A DNA stretch of 32,000 nucleotides from contig NC_000964.3 of the NCBI RefSeq assembly GCF_000009045.1, positions 360,001-392,000 of the forward strand, written 5' to 3'. The DNA comes from Bacillus subtilis subsp. subtilis str. 168. Lineage in GTDB: Bacteria; Bacillota; Bacilli; Bacillales; Bacillaceae. The position numbers and the translations under genes are program-made. Shown one piece after another: positions 2,937-32,000 of the stretch. The notes beneath the pieces are model-generated. The model made no database searches and was not told the origin of the DNA. It worked only from the letters and a program-made list of their open reading frames with translations. Each line of letters starts with the position of its first letter. The stretch's first letter is position 1.

Positions 2937-4142
2937 ATGAAGCTGTCGGAACTGAAAACTAGCGGTCATCCACTCACTTTGCTCTGTTCCTTTTTATACT
3001 TTGATGTCAGTTTTATGATATGGGTTATGCTTGGGGCGCTGGGTGTTTATATTTCTCAGGATTTTGGCCTGTCTCCTTTTGAGAAAGGGCTTGTCGTAGC
3101 TGTGCCGATTTTATCTGGATCTGTGTTTCGTATCATTCTTGGTATTTTAACGGACAGAATCGGACCGAAAAAAACGGCAGTGATCGGGATGCTGGTGACG
3201 ATGATTCCGCTGCTTTGGGGGACATTCGGCGGCCGTTCCCTGACTGAGCTGTATGCCATCGGGATTCTGCTTGGCGTGGCGGGAGCAAGCTTTGCTGTAG
3301 CGCTGCCTATGGCCAGCCGCTGGTATCCGCCTCATTTGCAGGGACTTGCGATGGGGATTGCCGGAGCGGGGAACAGCGGCACGTTGTTTGCAACCCTGTT
3401 TGGCCCTCGTCTGGCAGAGCAGTTCGGCTGGCACATTGTCATGGGAATTGCGCTAATTCCATTATTGATCGTCTTTATTCTTTTTGTATCCATGGCAAAG
3501 GATTCCCCTGCACAGCCGTCTCCCCAGCCGCTCAAAAGCTATCTGCATGTGTTTGGGCAAAAGGAAACATGGTTTTTCTGCCTGCTGTACAGCGTCACAT
3601 TTGGCGGATTTGTCGGGCTCTCAAGCTTTTTATCTATTTTCTTTGTTGATCAATACCAGCTGTCAAAAATTCACGCAGGGGACTTCGTTACATTATGTGT
3701 GGCGGCGGGGAGCTTTTTCCGGCCTGTCGGGGGCTTGATTTCAGATCGTGTCGGCGGCACGAAAGTTCTTTCTGTATTGTTTGTCATCGTGGCACTGTGT
3801 ATGGCCGGAGTCAGTAGCCTGCCATCTCTCTCAATGGTTATTGTTCTATTGTTTGTCGGAATGATGGGGCTCGGAATGGGAAACGGCGCAGTATTCCAGC
3901 TCGTGCCGCAGCGCTTCCGCAAAGAAATCGGCATGGTGACGGGAATCGTCGGTGCGGCCGGAGGAATCGGAGGGTTTTTCTTGCCGAACATCTTAGGATC
4001 TCTCAAACAGATGACAGGCACATATGCTATCGGTTTTATCACGTTTTCCTGTATCGCGCTGCTGGCGTTTGCACTTGTGCTTGCCGCAGGCTATTACTGG
4101 CGGAAAAGCTGGAGCGCGGAAAGCAGCCCGGCGGATGTTTAG
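2937..4142 (+). CDS. nasA: Nitrate/nitrite transporter NasA (MFS, NNP family)
   Basis: 401-aa, highly hydrophobic, 12-TM-like ORF with glycine-rich NNP-type motifs ([21 protein letters not shown]). SD GAAAGGGGA is upstream of the ATG. Divergent from nasB. Confidence 0.9.
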
Positions 4143-16559: not shown

Positions 16560-16575
16560 TTGCGGCATCCCGCAA
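16560..16575. promoter_or_regulatory. ComA box 1 of the srfA promoter
   Basis: TTGCGGCATCCCGCAA is a perfect TTGCGG-N4-CCGCAA dyad. Confidence 0.88.
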
Positions 16576-16603: not shown

Positions 16604-16619
16604 TTTCGGCATCCCGCAT
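16604..16619. promoter_or_regulatory. ComA box 2 of the srfA promoter
   Basis: TTTCGGCATCCCGCAT has the same dyad with two mismatches. It is exactly 44 bp (about four helical turns) downstream of box 1. Confidence 0.85.
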
Positions 16620-16967: not shown

Positions 16968-19900
16968 ATGGAAATAACTTTTTACCCTTTAACGGATGCA
17001 CAAAAACGAATTTGGTACACAGAAAAATTTTATCCTCACACGAGCATTTCAAATCTTGCGGGGATTGGTAAGCTGGTTTCAGCTGATGCGATTGATTATG
17101 TGCTTGTTGAGCAGGCGATTCAAGAGTTTATTCGCAGAAATGACGCCATGCGCCTTCGGTTGCGGCTAGATGAAAACGGGGAGCCTGTTCAATATATTAG
17201 CGAGTATCGGCCTGTTGATATAAAACATACTGACACTACTGAAGATCCGAATGCGATAGAGTTTATTTCACAATGGAGCCGGGAGGAAACGAAGAAACCT
17301 TTGCCGCTATACGATTGTGATTTGTTCCGTTTTTCCTTGTTCACCATAAAGGAAAATGAAGTGTGGTTTTACGCAAATGTTCATCACGTGATTTCTGATG
17401 GTATCTCCATGAATATTCTCGGGAATGCGATCATGCACATTTATTTAGAATTAGCCAGCGGCTCAGAGACAAAAGAAGGAATCTCGCATTCATTTATCGA
17501 TCATGTTTTATCTGAACAGGAATATGCTCAATCGAAGCGGTTTGAAAAGGACAAGGCGTTTTGGAACAAACAATTTGAATCGGTGCCTGAACTTGTTTCC
17601 TTGAAACGGAATGCATCCGCAGGGGGAAGTTTAGATGCTGAGAGGTTCTCTAAAGATGTGCCTGAAGCGCTTCATCAGCAGATTCTGTCGTTTTGTGAGG
17701 CGAATAAAGTCAGTGTTCTTTCGGTATTTCAATCGCTGCTCGCCGCCTATTTGTACAGGGTCAGCGGCCAGAATGATGTTGTGACGGGAACATTTATGGG
17801 CAACCGGACAAATGCGAAAGAGAAGCAGATGCTTGGCATGTTTGTTTCTACGGTTCCGCTTCGGACAAACATTGACGGCGGGCAGGCGTTTTCAGAATTT
17901 GTCAAAGACCGGATGAAGGATCTGATGAAGACACTTCGCCACCAAAAGTATCCGTATAATCTCCTAATCAACGATTTGCGTGAAACAAAGAGCTCTCTGA
18001 CCAAGCTGTTCACGGTTTCTCTTGAATATCAAGTGATGCAGTGGCAGAAAGAAGAGGATCTTGCCTTTTTGACTGAGCCGATTTTCAGCGGCAGCGGATT
18101 AAATGATGTCTCAATTCATGTAAAGGATCGATGGGATACTGGGAAACTCACCATAGATTTTGATTACCGCACTGATTTATTTTCACGTGAAGAAATCAAC
18201 ATGATTTGTGAGCGCATGATTACCATGCTGGAGAACGCGTTAACGCATCCAGAACATACAATTGATGAATTAACACTGATTTCTGATGCGGAGAAAGAGA
18301 AGCTGCTTGCGAGGGCCGGCGGTAAATCTGTGAGCTACCGTAAGGACATGACGATACCAGAGCTGTTCCAAGAAAAGGCTGAACTGCTTTCTGATCATCC
18401 AGCGGTTGTATTTGAAGATCGCACATTGTCCTATCGAACGTTACATGAGCAATCTGCACGCATCGCCAATGTGCTGAAACAGAAAGGGGTTGGCCCGGAC
18501 AGTCCTGTCGCGGTTTTGATTGAACGCTCTGAACGGATGATTACAGCTATCATGGGAATTTTAAAAGCCGGCGGAGCCTATGTGCCGATTGATCCGGGTT
18601 TTCCTGCTGAGCGCATTCAATATATTTTGGAGGACTGCGGGGCGGATTTCATCCTGACTGAATCGAAGGTTGCGGCGCCTGAAGCCGATGCTGAGCTGAT
18701 TGACTTAGATCAGGCGATTGAGGAAGGTGCAGAAGAAAGCCTGAATGCAGATGTGAACGCTCGGAACCTTGCCTACATTATTTACACATCGGGAACAACC
18801 GGACGCCCGAAAGGCGTTATGATCGAGCATCGCCAGGTTCATCATTTGGTTGAATCTCTGCAGCAGACGATTTATCAAAGCGGCAGCCAAACCCTGCGGA
18901 TGGCATTGCTTGCGCCGTTCCACTTTGATGCGTCAGTGAAGCAGATCTTCGCGTCGCTTCTTTTGGGCCAAACCCTTTATATCGTACCGAAGAAAACAGT
19001 GACGAACGGGGCCGCCCTTACTGCATATTATCGGAAGAACAGCATTGAGGCGACGGACGGAACACCGGCTCATTTGCAAATGCTGGCAGCAGCAGGCGAT
19101 TTTGAAGGCCTAAAACTGAAGCACATGCTGATCGGAGGAGAAGGCCTGTCATCTGTTGTTGCGGACAAGCTGCTGAAGCTGTTTAAAGAAGCCGGCACAG
19201 CGCCGCGTTTGACTAATGTGTACGGGCCGACTGAAACGTGCGTTGACGCGTCTGTTCATCCGGTTATCCCTGAGAATGCAGTTCAATCAGCGTATGTGCC
19301 GATCGGGAAAGCGCTGGGGAATAACCGCTTATATATTTTGGATCAAAAAGGCCGGCTGCAGCCTGAAGGCGTGGCGGGTGAGCTTTATATCGCGGGAGAC
19401 GGTGTGGGCCGAGGCTATTTACATTTGCCTGAATTAACGGAAGAGAAGTTTTTACAAGATCCATTCGTGCCGGGCGATCGCATGTACCGGACCGGGGACG
19501 TGGTGCGCTGGCTTCCAGATGGAACAATCGAATATTTAGGCAGAGAGGATGACCAGGTCAAAGTCCGCGGATACCGGATTGAGCTTGGGGAAATTGAAGC
19601 CGTGATTCAGCAGGCGCCAGACGTTGCAAAAGCCGTTGTTTTGGCACGCCCTGACGAACAGGGAAATCTTGAGGTTTGCGCATATGTTGTGCAGAAGCCT
19701 GGAAGCGAATTTGCGCCAGCCGGTTTGAGGGAGCATGCGGCCAGACAGCTTCCTGACTATATGGTGCCGGCTTACTTTACAGAAGTGACAGAAATTCCGC
19801 TTACACCAAGCGGCAAAGTCGACCGCCGCAAGCTGTTTGCACTAGAGGTGAAGGCTGTCAGCGGCACTGCCTATACAGCGCCGCGAAATGAGACTGAAAA

Positions 19901-20144
19901 AGCAATCGCAGCCATTTGGCAGGACGTGCTGAACGTTGAGAAGGCGGGGATCTTTGACAATTTCTTTGAAACTGGCGGACATTCATTAAAAGCCATGACC
20001 CTTTTAACAAAGATTCATAAGGAAACAGGCATTGAGATTCCGCTTCAATTTTTGTTTGAGCATCCGACGATTACGGCTCTTGCAGAGGAAGCTGATCACA
20101 GAGAAAGCAAAGCTTTTGCGGTGATTGAACCTGCTGAAAAACAG
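16968..20144 (+). other. srfAA module 1: starter (lipo-initiation) C domain - A - T; Glu-activating by established knowledge
   Basis: HHVISDG at 17382-17402; YTSGTTGRPKG at 18783-18815; the carrier GGHS serine codon at 19983-19985. Boundaries are approximate. Confidence 0.8.
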
Positions 20145-23100
20145 GAGCATTACCCGCTTTCATTGGCACAGCAGCGAACATATATCGTCAGCCAGTTCGA
20201 GGATGCGGGAGTCGGCTATAACATGCCAGCAGCAGCAATTCTGGAAGGGCCTTTAGATATTCAAAAGCTGGAGCGCGCATTTCAGGGATTAATCCGACGC
20301 CACGAGTCATTGAGAACATCATTTGTTCTTGAAAACAGCACGCCGAGACAGAAAATTCACGATAGCGTTGATTTCAACATCGAAATGATTGAAAGAGGCG
20401 GCCGCTCAGATGAGGCAATTATGGCTTCATTCGTTCGGACATTTGATTTGGCGAAAGCTCCGCTGTTCAGAATCGGTTTGCTGGGGCTTGAAGAGAACCG
20501 TCATATGCTGCTGTTTGACATGCACCATTTGATTTCTGACGGTGTATCCATTGGCATTATGCTGGAGGAGTTAGCACGCATTTATAAAGGCGAACAGCTT
20601 CCTGATCTTCGTCTCCAGTATAAGGACTACGCTGTATGGCAAAGCAGACAGGCTGCTGAAGGGTACAAGAAGGACCAGGCTTATTGGAAGGAAGTCTTTG
20701 CAGGCGAGCTCCCGGTGCTTCAGCTTCTGTCCGATTACCCAAGACCACCTGTTCAAAGCTTTGAAGGGGATCGGGTGTCAATCAAGCTGGATGCGGGGGT
20801 AAAGGATCGCCTCAATCGTTTGGCTGAACAAAACGGCGCCACTTTATATATGGTGATGCTTTCCGCTTACTATACGCTTTTGTCAAAGTATACGGGGCAG
20901 GATGACATCATTGTCGGGACACCGTCAGCGGGCAGAAATCACTCCGATACAGAGGGCATTATCGGGATGTTCGTCAATACGCTTGCGATTCGCAGTGAGG
21001 TGAAGCAGAATGAGACGTTTACCCAATTGATCTCGCGTGTCCGCAAACGGGTGCTGGATGCCTTTTCTCATCAGGACTATCCGTTTGAGTGGCTTGTTGA
21101 AGATTTGAACATCCCGCGTGATGTTAGCAGGCATCCGCTGTTTGACACGATGTTCAGCCTTCAAAACGCGACAGAGGGCATTCCGGCTGTCGGCGATCTT
21201 TCCTTGTCTGTTCAAGAGACCAATTTCAAGATTGCCAAATTTGATTTGACGGTGCAGGCGAGAGAAACCGATGAAGGCATTGAGATTGATGTGGATTACA
21301 GCACAAAGCTGTTTAAACAAAGCACGGCAGACAGGCTGCTTACGCATTTTGCGCGTTTGCTTGAAGATGCTGCGGCTGATCCAGAGAAGCCGATTTCTGA
21401 GTATAAGCTTCTTTCTGAAGAGGAGGCTGCTTCGCAAATTCAGCAGTTTAACCCGGGCAGAACACCTTATCCGAAAGATAAAACAATTGTTCAGCTGTTT
21501 GAGGAGCAAGCGGCGAATACGCCAGACCACACTGCGCTTCAATATGAAGGCGAATCACTCACTTATCGTGAACTGAATGAACGGGCCAATCGTTTAGCCC
21601 GCGGCATTCTTTCTCTTGGAGCTGGCGAAGGCAGAACTGCGGCTGTCTTATGCGAGCGGTCAATGGATATGATTGTGTCGATCTTGGCAGTATTAAAATC
21701 AGGTTCGGCTTATGTTCCGATCGATCCGGAACATCCGATTCAGCGGATGCAGCATTTCTTCCGTGACAGCGGAGCAAAGGTGCTTCTCACTCAGAGGAAA
21801 TTAAAGGCTTTGGCGGAAGAAGCGGAATTTAAGGGCGTTATCGTGCTAGCCGATGAGGAAGAAAGCTATCATGCCGATGCGCGAAATCTCGCACTGCCTC
21901 TTGATTCTGCAGCAATGGCCAACCTGACGTATACTTCCGGAACGACTGGAACACCTAAGGGGAATATCGTGACACATGCCAATATTCTCCGCACGGTGAA
22001 GGAAACGAATTATCTCAGCATTACAGAACAGGATACGATTCTCGGTCTTTCCAATTACGTGTTTGACGCGTTTATGTTCGATATGTTCGGCTCTTTGTTA
22101 AACGGAGCCAAGCTGGTGCTGATACCGAAGGAAACCGTTTTGGACATGGCTCGCCTGTCCCGCGTCATTGAACGGGAGAACATCAGCATTCTCATGATTA
22201 CAACCGCTTTGTTCCACTTGCTTGTGGACTTGAATCCGGCATGCTTGTCAACGCTTCGCAAGATTATGTTTGGCGGGGAACGGGCTTCGGTTGAGCATGT
22301 CAGAAAAGCTTTGCAAACGGTTGGAAAGGGCAAGCTCCTTCATATGTATGGACCGTCTGAAAGCACGGTTTTCGCGACGTATCATCCGGTTGATGAATTG
22401 GAGGAGCACACGCTGTCTGTTCCGATTGGAAAACCGGTCAGCAATACGGAAGTATACATTCTTGACCGTACGGGACACGTGCAGCCTGCCGGGATTGCCG
22501 GAGAGCTTTGCGTCAGCGGCGAAGGACTCGTGAAAGGCTATTACAACCGTCCAGAACTGACTGAGGAGAAATTTGTTCCCCATCCGTTTACATCCGGCGA
22601 ACGCATGTATAAAACGGGAGACCTTGCGAGATGGCTGCCGAATGGCGACATCGAATTTATCGGGCGAATCGACCATCAGGTGAAGATTCGCGGACAGCGC
22701 ATCGAGCTTGGAGAAATCGAACATCAGCTGCAAACCCATGATCGTGTTCAGGAAAGTGTTGTGCTTGCCGTTGATCAAGGAGCGGGAGATAAACTGTTGT
22801 GTGCTTACTATGTCGGAGAAGGAGACATCTCATCACAAGAGATGAGAGAGCATGCTGCGAAGGACTTGCCGGCATATATGGTTCCTGCGGTGTTTATCCA
22901 AATGGACGAGCTGCCGCTGACAGGGAACGGAAAAATTGACCGGAGAGCGCTGCCGATTCCTGATGCCAACGTTTCAAGAGGTGTTTCATATGTTGCGCCA
23001 CGCAATGGAACGGAACAAAAAGTCGCGGACATTTGGGCACAGGTACTTCAGGCAGAACAAGTCGGCGCTTATGACCACTTCTTTGACATTGGCGGACATT

Positions 23101-27743: not shown

Positions 27744-30700
27744 ATGAGCAAAAAATCGATTCAAAAGGTGTACGCACTGACACCAATGCAGGAGGGAATG
27801 CTGTATCATGCGATGCTTGATCCGCATTCTTCCTCGTACTTCACACAATTAGAGCTTGGGATTCACGGCGCTTTTGATCTTGAAATCTTTGAGAAAAGCG
27901 TCAATGAACTGATTCGGTCATACGATATTCTCCGTACGGTATTTGTGCATCAGCAGCTGCAAAAACCGCGTCAGGTCGTGTTAGCGGAACGCAAAACAAA
28001 AGTGCATTATGAGGATATCAGTCATGCAGACGAAAACCGCCAGAAAGAGCACATTGAGCGTTACAAACAAGACGTTCAGCGCCAAGGCTTTAACCTGGCA
28101 AAAGACATATTGTTCAAGGTAGCGGTTTTCCGCCTTGCTGCAGATCAGCTGTATCTTGTCTGGAGCAATCATCATATTATGATGGACGGCTGGAGCATGG
28201 GCGTCCTCATGAAAAGCCTGTTCCAAAACTATGAAGCGCTCAGAGCAGGCAGGACACCGGCAAACGGTCAGGGCAAGCCTTATTCCGATTACATCAAGTG
28301 GCTTGGAAAACAGGACAATGAAGAAGCGGAGAGCTACTGGAGCGAGCGCTTGGCGGGTTTTGAACAGCCAAGCGTGCTCCCGGGCCGCCTGCCTGTGAAA
28401 AAAGACGAATACGTCAATAAAGAATATTCATTTACATGGGACGAAACACTGGTTGCCCGTATTCAGCAAACCGCAAATCTCCATCAAGTGACAGGGCCTA
28501 ACCTATTTCAGGCCGTTTGGGGCATTGTTCTCAGCAAATACAACTTTACGGATGATGTGATCTTCGGAACGGTCGTCTCGGGACGACCGTCTGAAATCAA
28601 CGGAATCGAAACGATGGCGGGGCTGTTTATCAACACCATTCCAGTGCGGGTGAAAGTTGAACGAGATGCTGCATTCGCTGATATTTTCACAGCTGTTCAG
28701 CAGCATGCAGTAGAGGCAGAGCGTTACGATTACGTGCCGCTCTATGAGATTCAAAAACGCTCAGCTCTTGATGGCAATCTCTTAAACCATCTGGTCGCGT
28801 TTGAAAATTATCCGCTTGATCAAGAGCTTGAAAACGGCAGCATGGAAGACCGCCTCGGGTTTTCGATTAAGGTAGAAAGCGCATTTGAACAAACGAGCTT
28901 CGATTTCAACCTGATTGTGTATCCGGGCAAAACGTGGACCGTCAAAATTAAATATAACGGAGCCGCCTTTGATTCCGCTTTTATCGAACGGACAGCGGAG
29001 CACCTTACCCGCATGATGGAAGCAGCTGTCGATCAGCCGGCCGCTTTTGTGCGTGAGTACGGGCTTGTGGGAGACGAAGAGCAGCGGCAAATTGTCGAGG
29101 TGTTTAACAGCACGAAAGCCGAACTCCCTGAAGGAATGGCTGTTCACCAAGTGTTTGAAGAGCAAGCGAAACGGACGCCGGCGAGCACCGCCGTCGTATA
29201 TGAAGGAACCAAGCTGACGTACCGCGAGCTGAATGCAGCGGCTAACCGTCTGGCGAGAAAGCTTGTCGAACATGGGCTTCAAAAAGGGGAAACAGCAGCG
29301 ATTATGAACGACCGCTCAGTAGAAACCGTTGTCGGCATGCTGGCTGTTTTAAAAGCAGGCGCCGCATATGTGCCGCTTGATCCAGCGCTTCCTGGGGATC
29401 GTCTTCGTTTCATGGCAGAGGACAGCTCCGTTCGAATGGTTTTGATCGGAAATTCTTATACAGGGCAGGCACATCAGCTGCAAGTGCCGGTTCTTACACT
29501 GGACATAGGCTTTGAAGAGAGTGAAGCGGCTGACAATCTCAACCTGCCATCCGCCCCGTCTGATTTGGCGTACATCATGTACACATCCGGTTCAACGGGC
29601 AAACCGAAAGGCGTCATGATCGAACATAAAAGCATTCTGCGCCTCGTCAAAAATGCCGGGTACGTTCCTGTTACTGAAGAAGACCGCATGGCGCAAACGG
29701 GAGCTGTCAGCTTTGATGCCGGAACGTTTGAGGTATTCGGCGCACTGCTGAATGGCGCAGCACTTTATCCGGTCAAAAAAGAGACACTGCTTGATGCGAA
29801 ACAATTTGCTGCATTCCTGCGTGAGCAAAGCATCACAACTATGTGGCTGACATCACCTTTATTCAACCAGCTTGCTGCAAAGGATGCGGGTATGTTCGGC
29901 ACACTGCGCCATTTAATCATCGGCGGAGATGCCCTTGTCCCGCATATTGTCAGCAAAGTAAAACAGGCATCGCCGTCGCTTTCATTGTGGAACGGATACG
30001 GCCCGACAGAAAACACGACGTTTTCAACCAGTTTTCTGATCGACCGCGAGTATGGCGGCTCTATCCCAATCGGGAAGCCGATCGGAAATTCCACTGCCTA
30101 TATTATGGATGAGCAGCAATGCCTGCAGCCAATCGGCGCGCCTGGTGAGCTTTGCGTAGGCGGAATCGGTGTAGCGCGTGGGTATGTCAATCTCCCTGAG
30201 CTGACGGAGAAGCAATTTCTGGAAGACCCGTTCAGACCGGGTGAGAGAATTTACCGCACTGGTGACTTGGCAAGATGGCTGCCGGACGGCAATATCGAAT
30301 TTTTAGGCAGAATCGACAACCAAGTGAAGGTGCGCGGCTTCCGAATTGAGCTTGGCGAAATTGAAACAAAACTGAACATGGCTGAGCATGTGACAGAAGC
30401 CGCGGTGATCATACGCAAGAACAAAGCAGACGAAAATGAAATTTGCGCGTACTTCACGGCGGATCGTGAAGTGGCTGTGAGTGAGCTGAGAAAAACACTG
30501 TCTCAGTCTTTGCCTGACTATATGGTCCCTGCCCACCTGATTCAAATGGACAGCCTGCCGCTCACGCCAAACGGGAAAATCAACAAAAAGGAACTGCCTG
30601 CACCGCAATCAGAAGCCGTGCAGCCGGAATACGCAGCACCAAAAACAGAGAGTGAAAAGAAATTAGCGGAGATCTGGGAAGGAATACTCGGCGTCAAAGC

Positions 30701-32000
30701 AGGCGTTACCGATAACTTCTTTATGATCGGCGGCCATTCTTTGAAAGCGATGATGATGACGGCGAAAATTCAAGAGCATTTTCATAAGGAAGTTCCGATA
30801 AAAGTGCTTTTTGAAAAGCCGACTATTCAAGAACTGGCACTGTATTTGGAAGAGAACGAAAGCAAGGAGGAGCAGACGTTTGAACCGATCAGGCAAGCAT
30901 CTTATCAGCAGCATTATCCTGTATCCCCGGCCCAGCGGAGAATGTATATCCTCAATCAGCTTGGACAAGCAAACACAAGCTACAACGTCCCCGCTGTACT
31001 TCTGCTGGAGGGAGAAGTAGATAAAGACCGGCTTGAAAACGCGATTCAGCAATTAATCAACCGGCACGAAATCCTCCGTACATCGTTTGACATGATCGAC
31101 GGAGAGGTTGTGCAAACCGTTCATAAAAACATATCGTTCCAGCTGGAGGCTGCCAAGGGACGGGAAGAAGACGCGGAAGAGATAATCAAAGCATTTGTTC
31201 AGCCGTTTGAATTAAACCGCGCGCCGCTCGTCCGTTCGAAGCTTGTCCAGCTGGAAGAAAAACGCCACCTGCTGCTCATTGATATGCATCATATTATTAC
31301 TGACGGAAGTTCAACAGGCATTCTAATCGGTGATCTTGCCAAAATATATCAAGGCGCAGATCTGGAACTGCCACAAATTCACTATAAAGATTACGCAGTT
31401 TGGCACAAAGAACAAACTAATTATCAAAAAGATGAGGAATACTGGCTCGATGTCTTTAAAGGCGAACTGCCAATACTGGATCTTCCCGCGGATTTCGAGC
31501 GGCCAGCTGAACGGAGCTTTGCGGGAGAGCGCGTGATGTTTGGGCTTGATAAGCAAATCACGGCTCAAATCAAATCGCTCATGGCAGAAACAGATACGAC
31601 AATGTACATGTTTTTGCTGGCGGCGTTCAATGTACTCCTTTCCAAGTACGCGTCACAGGATGATATCATTGTCGGCTCGCCGACAGCTGGCAGAACACAT
31701 CCTGATCTGCAAGGTGTGCCGGGTATGTTTGTCAACACGGTGGCACTCAGAACGGCACCAGCGGGAGATAAAACCTTCGCGCAATTCCTTGAAGAGGTCA
31801 AAACAGCCAGCCTTCAAGCATTCGAGCACCAGAGCTATCCGCTTGAGGAGCTGATTGAAAAGCTTCCGCTTACAAGGGATACAAGCAGAAGTCCGCTGTT
31901 CAGCGTGATGTTCAACATGCAGAATATGGAGATTCCTTCATTAAGATTAGGAGATTTGAAGATTTCCTCGTATTCCATGCTTCATCATGTTGCGAAATTT
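27744..32000 (+). CDS. srfAB: Surfactin synthetase subunit 2, first 1419 codons (module 4 C-A-T and the start of the module 5 C domain); runs off the right edge
   Basis: ATG at 27744 lies 12 nt after the srfAA stop, with SD GAGGTGG. The frame stays open to the window end, so it is absent from the ORF track. The N-terminus is MSKKSIQKVYALTPMQEGMLYHA. HHIMMDG is at 28170-28190, YTSGSTGKPKG at 29580-29612, the GGHS serine codon at 30738-30740, and the next C-domain HHIITDG at 31287-31307. Confidence 0.95.
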   Translation, partial: MSKKSIQKVYALTPMQEGMLYHAMLDPHSSSYFTQLELGIHGAFDLEIFEKSVNELIRSYDILRTVFVHQQLQKPRQVVLAERKTKVHYEDISHADENRQKEHIERYKQDVQRQGFNLAKDILFKVAVFRLAADQLYLVWSNHHIMMDGWSMGVLMKSLFQNYEALRAGRTPANGQGKPYSDYIKWLGKQDNEEAESYWSERLAGFEQPSVLPGRLPVKKDEYVNKEYSFTWDETLVARIQQTANLHQVTGPNLFQAVWGIVLSKYNFTDDVIFGTVVSGRPSEINGIETMAGLFINTIPVRVKVERDAAFADIFTAVQQHAVEAERYDYVPLYEIQKRSALDGNLLNHLVAFENYPLDQELENGSMEDRLGFSIKVESAFEQTSFDFNLIVYPGKTWTVKIKYNGAAFDSAFIERTAEHLTRMMEAAVDQPAAFVREYGLVGDEEQRQIVEVFNSTKAELPEGMAVHQVFEEQAKRTPASTAVVYEGTKLTYRELNAAANRLARKLVEHGLQKGETAAIMNDRSVETVVGMLAVLKAGAAYVPLDPALPGDRLRFMAEDSSVRMVLIGNSYTGQAHQLQVPVLTLDIGFEESEAADNLNLPSAPSDLAYIMYTSGSTGKPKGVMIEHKSILRLVKNAGYVPVTEEDRMAQTGAVSFDAGTFEVFGALLNGAALYPVKKETLLDAKQFAAFLREQSITTMWLTSPLFNQLAAKDAGMFGTLRHLIIGGDALVPHIVSKVKQASPSLSLWNGYGPTENTTFSTSFLIDREYGGSIPIGKPIGNSTAYIMDEQQCLQPIGAPGELCVGGIGVARGYVNLPELTEKQFLEDPFRPGERIYRTGDLARWLPDGNIEFLGRIDNQVKVRGFRIELGEIETKLNMAEHVTEAAVIIRKNKADENEICAYFTADREVAVSELRKTLSQSLPDYMVPAHLIQMDSLPLTPNGKINKKELPAPQSEAVQPEYAAPKTESEKKLAEIWEGILGVKAGVTDNFFMIGGHSLKAMMMTAKIQEHFHKEVPIKVLFEKPTIQELALYLEENESKEEQTFEPIRQASYQQHYPVSPAQRRMYILNQLGQANTSYNVPAVLLLEGEVDKDRLENAIQQLINRHEILRTSFDMIDGEVVQTVHKNISFQLEAAKGREEDAEEIIKAFVQPFELNRAPLVRSKLVQLEEKRHLLLIDMHHIITDGSSTGILIGDLAKIYQGADLELPQIHYKDYAVWHKEQTNYQKDEEYWLDVFKGELPILDLPADFERPAERSFAGERVMFGLDKQITAQIKSLMAETDTTMYMFLLAAFNVLLSKYASQDDIIVGSPTAGRTHPDLQGVPGMFVNTVALRTAPAGDKTFAQFLEEVKTASLQAFEHQSYPLEELIEKLPLTRDTSRSPLFSVMFNMQNMEIPSLRLGDLKISSYSMLHHVAKF
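30880..31020 (+). CDS. comS: ComS, 46-aa competence regulator (anti-adaptor for MecA/ClpCP), encoded in the +1 frame inside srfAB
   Basis: TTG at 30880 lies 9 nt after AAGGAGG (30864-30870). Translation (M)NRSGKHLISSIILYPRPSGECISSISLDKQTQATTSPLYFCWREK is recognised as ComS. The ORF-track entry 30811-31020 is the same frame extended to an upstream ATG that lacks an SD. Confidence 0.9.
   Translation: MNRSGKHLISSIILYPRPSGECISSISLDKQTQATTSPLYFCWREK

Follow-up and report, generated by a model that had tools for sequence, protein, structure and literature searches.

The overprinted competence gene comS within srfAB of Bacillus subtilis: translation signals, dual-coding constraint and possible origin

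The 32,000-nucleotide (nt) stretch of the Bacillus subtilis subsp. subtilis str. 168 genome analysed here (NC_000964.3, positions 360,001 to 392,000 of the forward strand; hereafter the window, numbered from its first letter) carries srfAA and the 5' part of srfAB, and positions 30880-31020 within the latter are almost certainly comS, whose 46 codons overprint B. subtilis srfAB in the +1 frame. This is no discovery but a textbook case that was already known, as the first-pass annotation, made from the sequence alone, had said in calling it known biology; the founding reports (D'Souza 1994; Hamoen 1995) are cited in PMC7960918 and PMC4482431. Together with rpmH/rnpA, comS makes up the classic pair of bacterial examples of out-of-frame internal initiation (bioRxiv 10.1101/520783). 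The rpmH gene inside rnpA of Thermus thermophilus is, like comS, a complete small gene read from an internal out-of-frame start in a longer gene; however, the proteins and their functions are unrelated, and comS encodes a regulator carried along by a 27-kb biosynthetic operon.

The frame of comS follows directly from the numbering: srfAB codons begin at positions divisible by 3, and a gene starting at TTG 30880 therefore lies in the +1 frame relative to srfAB, where it overlaps host codons 1046-1093. Translation from this TTG yields (M)NRSGKHLISSIILYPRPSGECISSISLDKQTQATTSPLYFCWREK, a peptide of 46 amino acids (aa), and thereby bears out the 46-codon, 141-nt +1 open reading frame (ORF) that had been recognised at first reading. 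The limits of 30811-31020 originally assigned to the gene hold at their end but not at their start, since 30811 is merely where the ORF finder begins (the first TTG of a maximal plus-strand ORF, 30811-31020, of 69 aa), and the gene itself starts at 30880. The near-perfect Shine-Dalgarno (SD) sequence AAGGAGG reported in the same annotation is indeed present 9 nt before this TTG. In srfAA and the srfAB fragment, which make up 15 kb of nonribosomal peptide synthetase (NRPS) sequence, 102 off-frame start codons are followed by at least 30 open codons; of these candidates, the comS start alone shows a 7-nt match to the anti-SD sequence, the next best reaching 6 nt. The SD and the TTG together constitute a strong, predicted ribosome-binding site of comS's own.

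The identity of the product, proposed by eye as ComS, is secured by two look-ups. Against the Pfam family PF17584 (ComS, Bacillus competence protein S) the peptide scores 126.8 bits (cut-off 27, E=2e-37), with its residues 1-44 covering positions 1-44 of the 44-position model, and an exact-sequence search finds it to be UniProt COMS_BACSU, competence protein ComS, present on 593 contigs. Matches in a homology search are all named ComS (B. inaquosorum, B. mexicanus, B. halotolerans; 89-96% identity), and natural B. subtilis genomes with the same peptide share about 98% identity with the window across 4.1 kb. Comparison with the ComS of B. subtilis 168 (BSU03500; COMS_BACSU; PF17584) reveals the same 46 aa, nesting, frame, TTG, SD and ComA-box promoter region and no difference whatsoever; it is the same gene. 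An NCBIfam scan of ComS returned no model for the family, and a PDB sequence search found ComS in no solved structure. An unusual setting of the gene was encountered in GCA_046529535.1 (CP127089.1, 2374-3141; locus L080), where an identical comS stands free, 48 nt downstream of comK and outside srfAB. This comK-comS arrangement looks like an engineered super-competence cassette of the kind described in PMC4685060 and shows that comS works outside its host gene.

Within the host protein, Pfam mapping confirms the domain placement given in the first-pass annotation: comS occupies the linker between the module-4 carrier and module-5 condensation domains (the T4-C5 junction) and the start of the latter, downstream of the phosphopantetheine serine codon of the carrier (TCT, 30738). 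It begins 10 codons after the end of the module-4 carrier domain and spans 9 codons of the T4-C5 linker and, beyond them, ~39 codons at the start of the module-5 condensation domain. A 2021 review assigns comS to the module-4 A domain (PMC7960918), but by the more precise Pfam mapping the gene follows the carrier domain and lies at the T4-C5 junction, outside the A domain. Two blocks of ComS coincide with defined pieces of SrfAB: the codons for IILYPR overprint the srfAB codons for HYPVSPA, within the conserved N-terminal condensation-domain motif HYPVSPAQ, and those for LYFCW sit over srfAB VLLLEG.

How far does this arrangement extend beyond B. subtilis, and is comS under selection in its own frame? 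One genome per species was scanned with SrfAB residues 960-1259, which yielded 79 loci, those with the orthologous surfactin-type junction being L001-L021 and L024. In 15 other species (L001-L015), namely ten from the subtilis clade, B. atrophaeus, and the amyloliquefaciens clade with B. nakamurai, B. velezensis and B. siamensis, comS is kept at its full 46 codons, opens with TTG behind an (A/G)AGGAGG SD and ends at the same place, so that the +1 frame proves intact in 15/15 species of the subtilis, atrophaeus and amyloliquefaciens clades, in line with what the first-pass annotation would predict. The GGAGG core, IIL[YF]P and LYFCW are invariant in 16/16 ComS sequences. In the amyloliquefaciens clade (B. 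velezensis, B. siamensis, B. nakamurai) and B. atrophaeus, the position in srfAB, the 46 codons, TTG, GGAGG, stop, IIL[YF]P and LLYFCW are as in B. subtilis, whereas the central part has diverged (PQHSAGCISLISSDRPARATTS versus PRPSGECISSISLDKQTQATTS) and the motif reads IILFPQ or IILYPQ instead of IILYPR. By contrast, the comS start, SD and motifs were not found in the licheniformis clade (L016-L020) or in two more distant Bacillus loci (L021, L024), where the +1 frame is broken or shifted, and the absence from the licheniformis clade agrees with an earlier report that B. licheniformis has no obvious comS (PMC545597). The corresponding T4-C5 junction of lchAB (B. paralicheniformis, B. sonorensis, B. 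haynesii, B. swezeyi, B. glycinifermentans) is orthologous to that of SrfAB, with 63-65% protein identity over the query, but has neither TTG nor SD at the site, an interrupted or shifted +1 frame, no IILYP and no dip in synonymous change. One of the comS-bearing loci deserves mention in its own right: in B. stercoris D7XPN1 (JHCA01000011.1; L002) a stop or frameshift breaks the srfAB frame ~1.9 kb ahead of comS (locus position ~1125; the frame is open only from 1128 on), and comS is intact with a D29Y variant. This could be a pseudogenised synthetase that has kept comS, or an assembly error.

Dual-coding constraint, expected on first reading over srfAB codons 1046-1093, was measured as Nei-Gojobori synonymous diversity (pS) on the srfAB codon alignment (~2260 codons per locus) in 48-codon windows, with gene-wide p values from 2000 column permutations. 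In the subtilis clade (11 sequences), pS over comS is 0.074 against a background of 0.319 +/- 0.058 (gene-wide p<0.0005), the lowest of 2150 background windows. The dip is also present in the amyloliquefaciens clade (0.148 versus 0.370 +/- 0.079; gene-wide p=0.033), where 11/2150 windows lie at or below the comS value and the minimum falls at the gene start. No dip was found at the orthologous site in the licheniformis clade, which lacks comS (0.560 versus 0.506), nor at the paralogous T5-C6 junction of the same genomes (0.281 in the subtilis clade, 0.459 in the amyloliquefaciens clade). On a fine scale, pS in the subtilis clade equals 0 over 30861-30902, a segment that takes in the SD and the first codons, and does not exceed 0.13 as far as the stop. 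The reason lies in the relation of the two frames: third positions of srfAB codons are second positions of comS codons, so that nearly every change silent in SrfAB alters ComS. In all species that carry comS, purifying selection acts on the comS frame itself. The broader lesson drawn in the first-pass annotation, that off-frame ORFs in this region cannot be dismissed, is borne out only weakly; no other off-frame ORF in the 6.8 kb of srfAB that was compared shows a synonymous dip, and the dip at the start of srfAB is tied to no off-frame ORF.

Published mutagenesis addresses the same question experimentally. A 2026 study introduced five stop mutations, each a change of one base, into comS (11C>A, 74C>A, 74C>G, 83T>A and 128G>A) that leave the SrfAB sequence unchanged (PMC12915044). 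All five mutants lost ComK-dependent promoter activity as in a comS deletion and kept surfactin and multicellular phenotypes (PMC12915044), and a stop at Trp43 (G128A) had the same effect on PcomK and PcomGA promoter activity as removing comS entirely (PMC12915044). When numbered from 30880, the five mutations fall on Ser4, Ser25, Ser25, Leu28 and Trp43, and they convert srfAB Ile and Leu codons to synonymous codons, as published. Since the published numbering fits, 30880 and not 30811 is the start used in the field.

Could the +1 ORF nevertheless be a non-coding by-product of the NRPS gene, a stop-free stretch at a carrier-condensation junction in which AAGGAGG merely spells Lys-Glu-Glu of an acidic linker? 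Nothing in the present analysis speaks against the comS reading, but several observations set limits to it. As many as 19 same-strand off-frame ORFs of at least 46 codons occur in srfAA and the srfAB fragment (15 kb), and the length of the comS ORF alone is no evidence beyond chance. The paralogous T1-C2 junction in srfAA likewise bears a 43-codon +1 ORF (20125-20256; LNLLKNRSITRFHWHSSEHISSASSRMRESAITCQQQQFWKGL), whose TTG lies within a few nt of the comS-homologous place and whose TAG occupies the homologous place (xTA GAT read as TAG). There is, moreover, a weak sigma-70-like match (TTGAAA-17-GAAAAT, 30741-30769) 110 nt upstream of comS; sigma-70-like matches in the region are no more numerous than in shuffled sequences, and the search for an internal comS promoter gave this one weak plus-strand match and none that convinces. 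It is the SD that sets comS apart, the T1-C2 ORF having no real SD (AAAG only) and no IILYP motif. Against a by-product also stand the Pfam ComS match with exact identity to COMS_BACSU, the preservation of ORF, start and SD across 16 species, the confinement of the synonymous dip to comS-bearing clades and to the T4-C5 junction, and the srfAB-silent stop mutations that abolish competence signalling (PMC12915044). The clade-specific constraint and the published mutagenesis rule this explanation out, and the probability that we would still grant it is negligible.

Accepting that a peptide is made, one may ask whether its true form is the 69-aa product from TTG 30811, of which the 46-aa form would be only a part, given that the +1 frame is free of stops from 30802 on in the window and from still further upstream in relatives. 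No SD precedes 30811 (the preceding sequence is AGTTCCGATAAAAGTGCTTT), the 44 positions of PF17584 match residues 1-44 of the 46-aa form, the ComS database entries listed were all 46 aa long, pS amounts to 0.18-0.31 over 30813-30860 and then drops to 0 from the SD on, and the residue numbers Ser4, Ser25, Leu28 and Trp43 in the literature are compatible with a start at 30880 only. On these grounds the longer form, which we regard as very improbable, is rejected. It might equally be argued that synonymous changes are scarce because the RNA or DNA itself contains an element, such as a structure, a processing site or a binding site, and not because a peptide is under selection, the more so as a second synonymous cold spot without a convincing ORF lies 100 nt downstream (31119-31175) and non-peptide constraints may act here. 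Yet the comS start region (30840-30920) folds no better than shuffled sequences (z=0.29), Rfam gives no match over 30500-31500, the invariant parts are the peptide motifs IIL[YF]P and LYFCW, and nonsense mutations have the null phenotype (PMC12915044). The dip also fits the ORF at its 5' edge, with pS at 0 from the SD, although the rise past the stop is only gradual, and rescue by comS in trans is implied by engineered comK-comS cassettes (PMC4685060; L080). An element of this kind as the source of the dip has hardly any probability left, and selection on the ComS peptide remains the preferred explanation.

The cold spot itself, ~100-155 nt downstream of the comS stop, is the sole new item to emerge from this analysis. 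In the subtilis clade its pS amounts to 0.03-0.04, compared with a mean of 0.31 (p=0.003 for 19 codons by gene-wide permutation), and in 16-codon windows pS falls below 0.06 at only three places in the 6.8 kb of srfAB, namely the srfAB start, the SD and start of comS (30858-30942) and 31119-31173. Its core, TTCCAGCTGGAGGCTGCCAAGGGACGGGAAGAAGACGCG (31137-31175), includes an 8-bp palindrome, CCAGCTGG, and shows hardly any variation in B. atrophaeus and B. nakamurai either, but it has changed in B. velezensis, B. siamensis and the licheniformis clade. What could be conserved here? The segment 31021-31220 folds no better than shuffles (z=0.16), the alifold consensus of 16 species is weak (-16 kcal/mol, covariation term -1.6), Rfam has no match to the cold spot over 30500-31500, and no repeat copy exists within the window. 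Three candidates were considered and rejected: a 25-aa +1 ORF (31108-31185) with no usable SD, whose TTG is lost in B. halotolerans and B. mojavensis; a minus-strand promoter-like site (31156->31128), whose -10 hexamer varies in four species; and a minus-strand 22-aa ORF with no SD. No credible ORF or conserved promoter on either strand, and no RNA structure, Rfam family or repeat, accounts for the conservation. The cold spot may be an accident of shared ancestry or recombination; that it is an undescribed cis-element in the srfA mRNA or DNA serving comS expression is unlikely. PNPase is required for ComS expression, a requirement that is still unexplained (PMC4482431), and a processing or protection element is therefore a testable guess.

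Where might comS have come from? The T1-C2 ORF suggests that the +1 frame of such carrier-condensation junctions is intrinsically open and provides raw material for overprinting. A similar case was seen in the more distant surfactin-type synthetase of Bacillus sp. NPDC077027 (L021, ~3260-3385), where a TTG, present because the FE(P/R)I codons are conserved, stands at the place homologous to the comS start and opens a 41-codon +1 ORF (LNGLNQLNERKSIRCHRHSDVFIFCISLSQTVRTTTYRSS) with no ComS motifs and no proper SD. This ORF is probably a by-product and illustrates a possible precursor state. On the best account, overprinting probably gave rise to comS in a common ancestor of the subtilis, atrophaeus and amyloliquefaciens clades, at a junction where the +1 frame tends to be open in any case. 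The most constrained part of the NRPS junction would then have furnished the functional core of ComS, with the double constraint subsequently freezing the region.

The length of srfAA matches that of strain 168 srfAA (376968-387731, PMC4838370), window coordinates being those of 168 minus exactly 360000. The ComA boxes that the first-pass annotation had placed about 14 kb upstream were recovered by pattern search as two inverted repeats (16561-16574 and 16605-16618), 44 bp apart, upstream of srfAA and 14.3 kb upstream of comS. The srfA operon is transcribed from PsrfAA once ComQXPA quorum sensing phosphorylates ComA (PMC12915044), and comS is embedded in the very long srfA operon mRNA (PMC4482431); the comS message must be transcribed through srfAA. 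The two boxes, as sequence matches, agree with phosphorylated ComA as the predicted input driving comS. A published RNase III cleavage site in the srfAA mRNA maps to genome position 377518, i.e. window position 17518 and nt ~550 of the srfAA coding sequence (PMC4838370); loss of RNase III raises srfA RNA ~3.9-fold and surfactin ~2-fold and leaves competence unchanged (PMC4838370).

As to mechanism, ComS binds the adaptor MecA with an affinity above that of ComK, and ComK, freed from MecA/ClpC/ClpP proteolysis, autoactivates, ComS being degraded in turn (PMC3648451, PMC4482431); IILYPR is both the MecA-recognition motif and the degron of ComS for MecA/ClpC (PMC8138137). Placed on the present map, the sequence of events would begin at the srfAA promoter, ~14 kb upstream, which, driven by phosphorylated ComA, would yield an srfA mRNA carrying comS. 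According to the literature, ribosomes would begin within this message, outside the srfAB frame, at the SD and TTG of comS, and the resulting ComS would compete with ComK for MecA via IILYPR. ComK would thus escape MecA/ClpC/ClpP and activate its own gene, leading to competence, while the same protease would degrade ComS. Such an arrangement would tie competence strictly to transcription of the surfactin operon. The features on which this account draws are collected in Table 1.

Table 1. Positions of comS, its signals and motifs, the host gene and the upstream control sites in the window (aa, residues of SrfAB)
Feature	Position	Strand	Remarks
comS coding sequence	30880..31020	+	TTG start, 46 codons, TAG stop 31018-31020, 141 nt including stop
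Shine-Dalgarno sequence AAGGAGG	30864..30870	+	9-nt spacer to TTG 30880; spells srfAB codons K-E-E
IILYPR codons, ComS residues 12-17	30913..30930	+	MecA-recognition motif; from sequence, motif from PMC8138137
LYFCW codons, ComS residues 39-43	30994..31008	+	C-terminal block, invariant in 16 ComS sequences
srfAB, 5' part	27744..32000	+	ATG 27744 (MSKKSIQKVYALTPMQEG...), continues past window end; module 4 (C-A-T) and start of module 5
SrfAB Condensation	aa 7-451		Pfam
SrfAB AMP-binding	aa 471-814		Pfam
SrfAB AMP-binding_C	aa 872-945		Pfam
SrfAB PP-binding, module-4 carrier (PF00550)	aa 973-1035, nt 30660..30848	+	Pfam; GGHSL motif
SrfAB second Condensation (module 5)	from aa ~1055, nt 30906	+	Pfam
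srfAA	16968..27731	+	first operon gene; ORF of 3587 aa
ComA box 1	16561-16574	+	inverted repeat TGCGGCATCCCGCA; exact pattern match
ComA box 2	16605-16618	+	inverted repeat TTCGGCATCCCGCA; exact pattern match

What is the significance of having re-examined a gene so well established? For one thing, a first-stage reading of raw sequence can evidently recognise a true overprinted gene, and comS offers a clean positive control for the detection of dual coding, with a 4-fold drop in synonymous diversity that is both clade-specific and junction-specific. For another, any recoding of the SrfAB T4-C5 junction must keep the +1 frame. The superposition of IILYPR on the condensation motif HYPVSPAQ helps to explain how comS could arise and why this region is so immobile. 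As a whole gene translated out of frame within another, comS is the classic bacterial case, and it hard-wires competence to the quorum-sensing control of surfactin synthesis.

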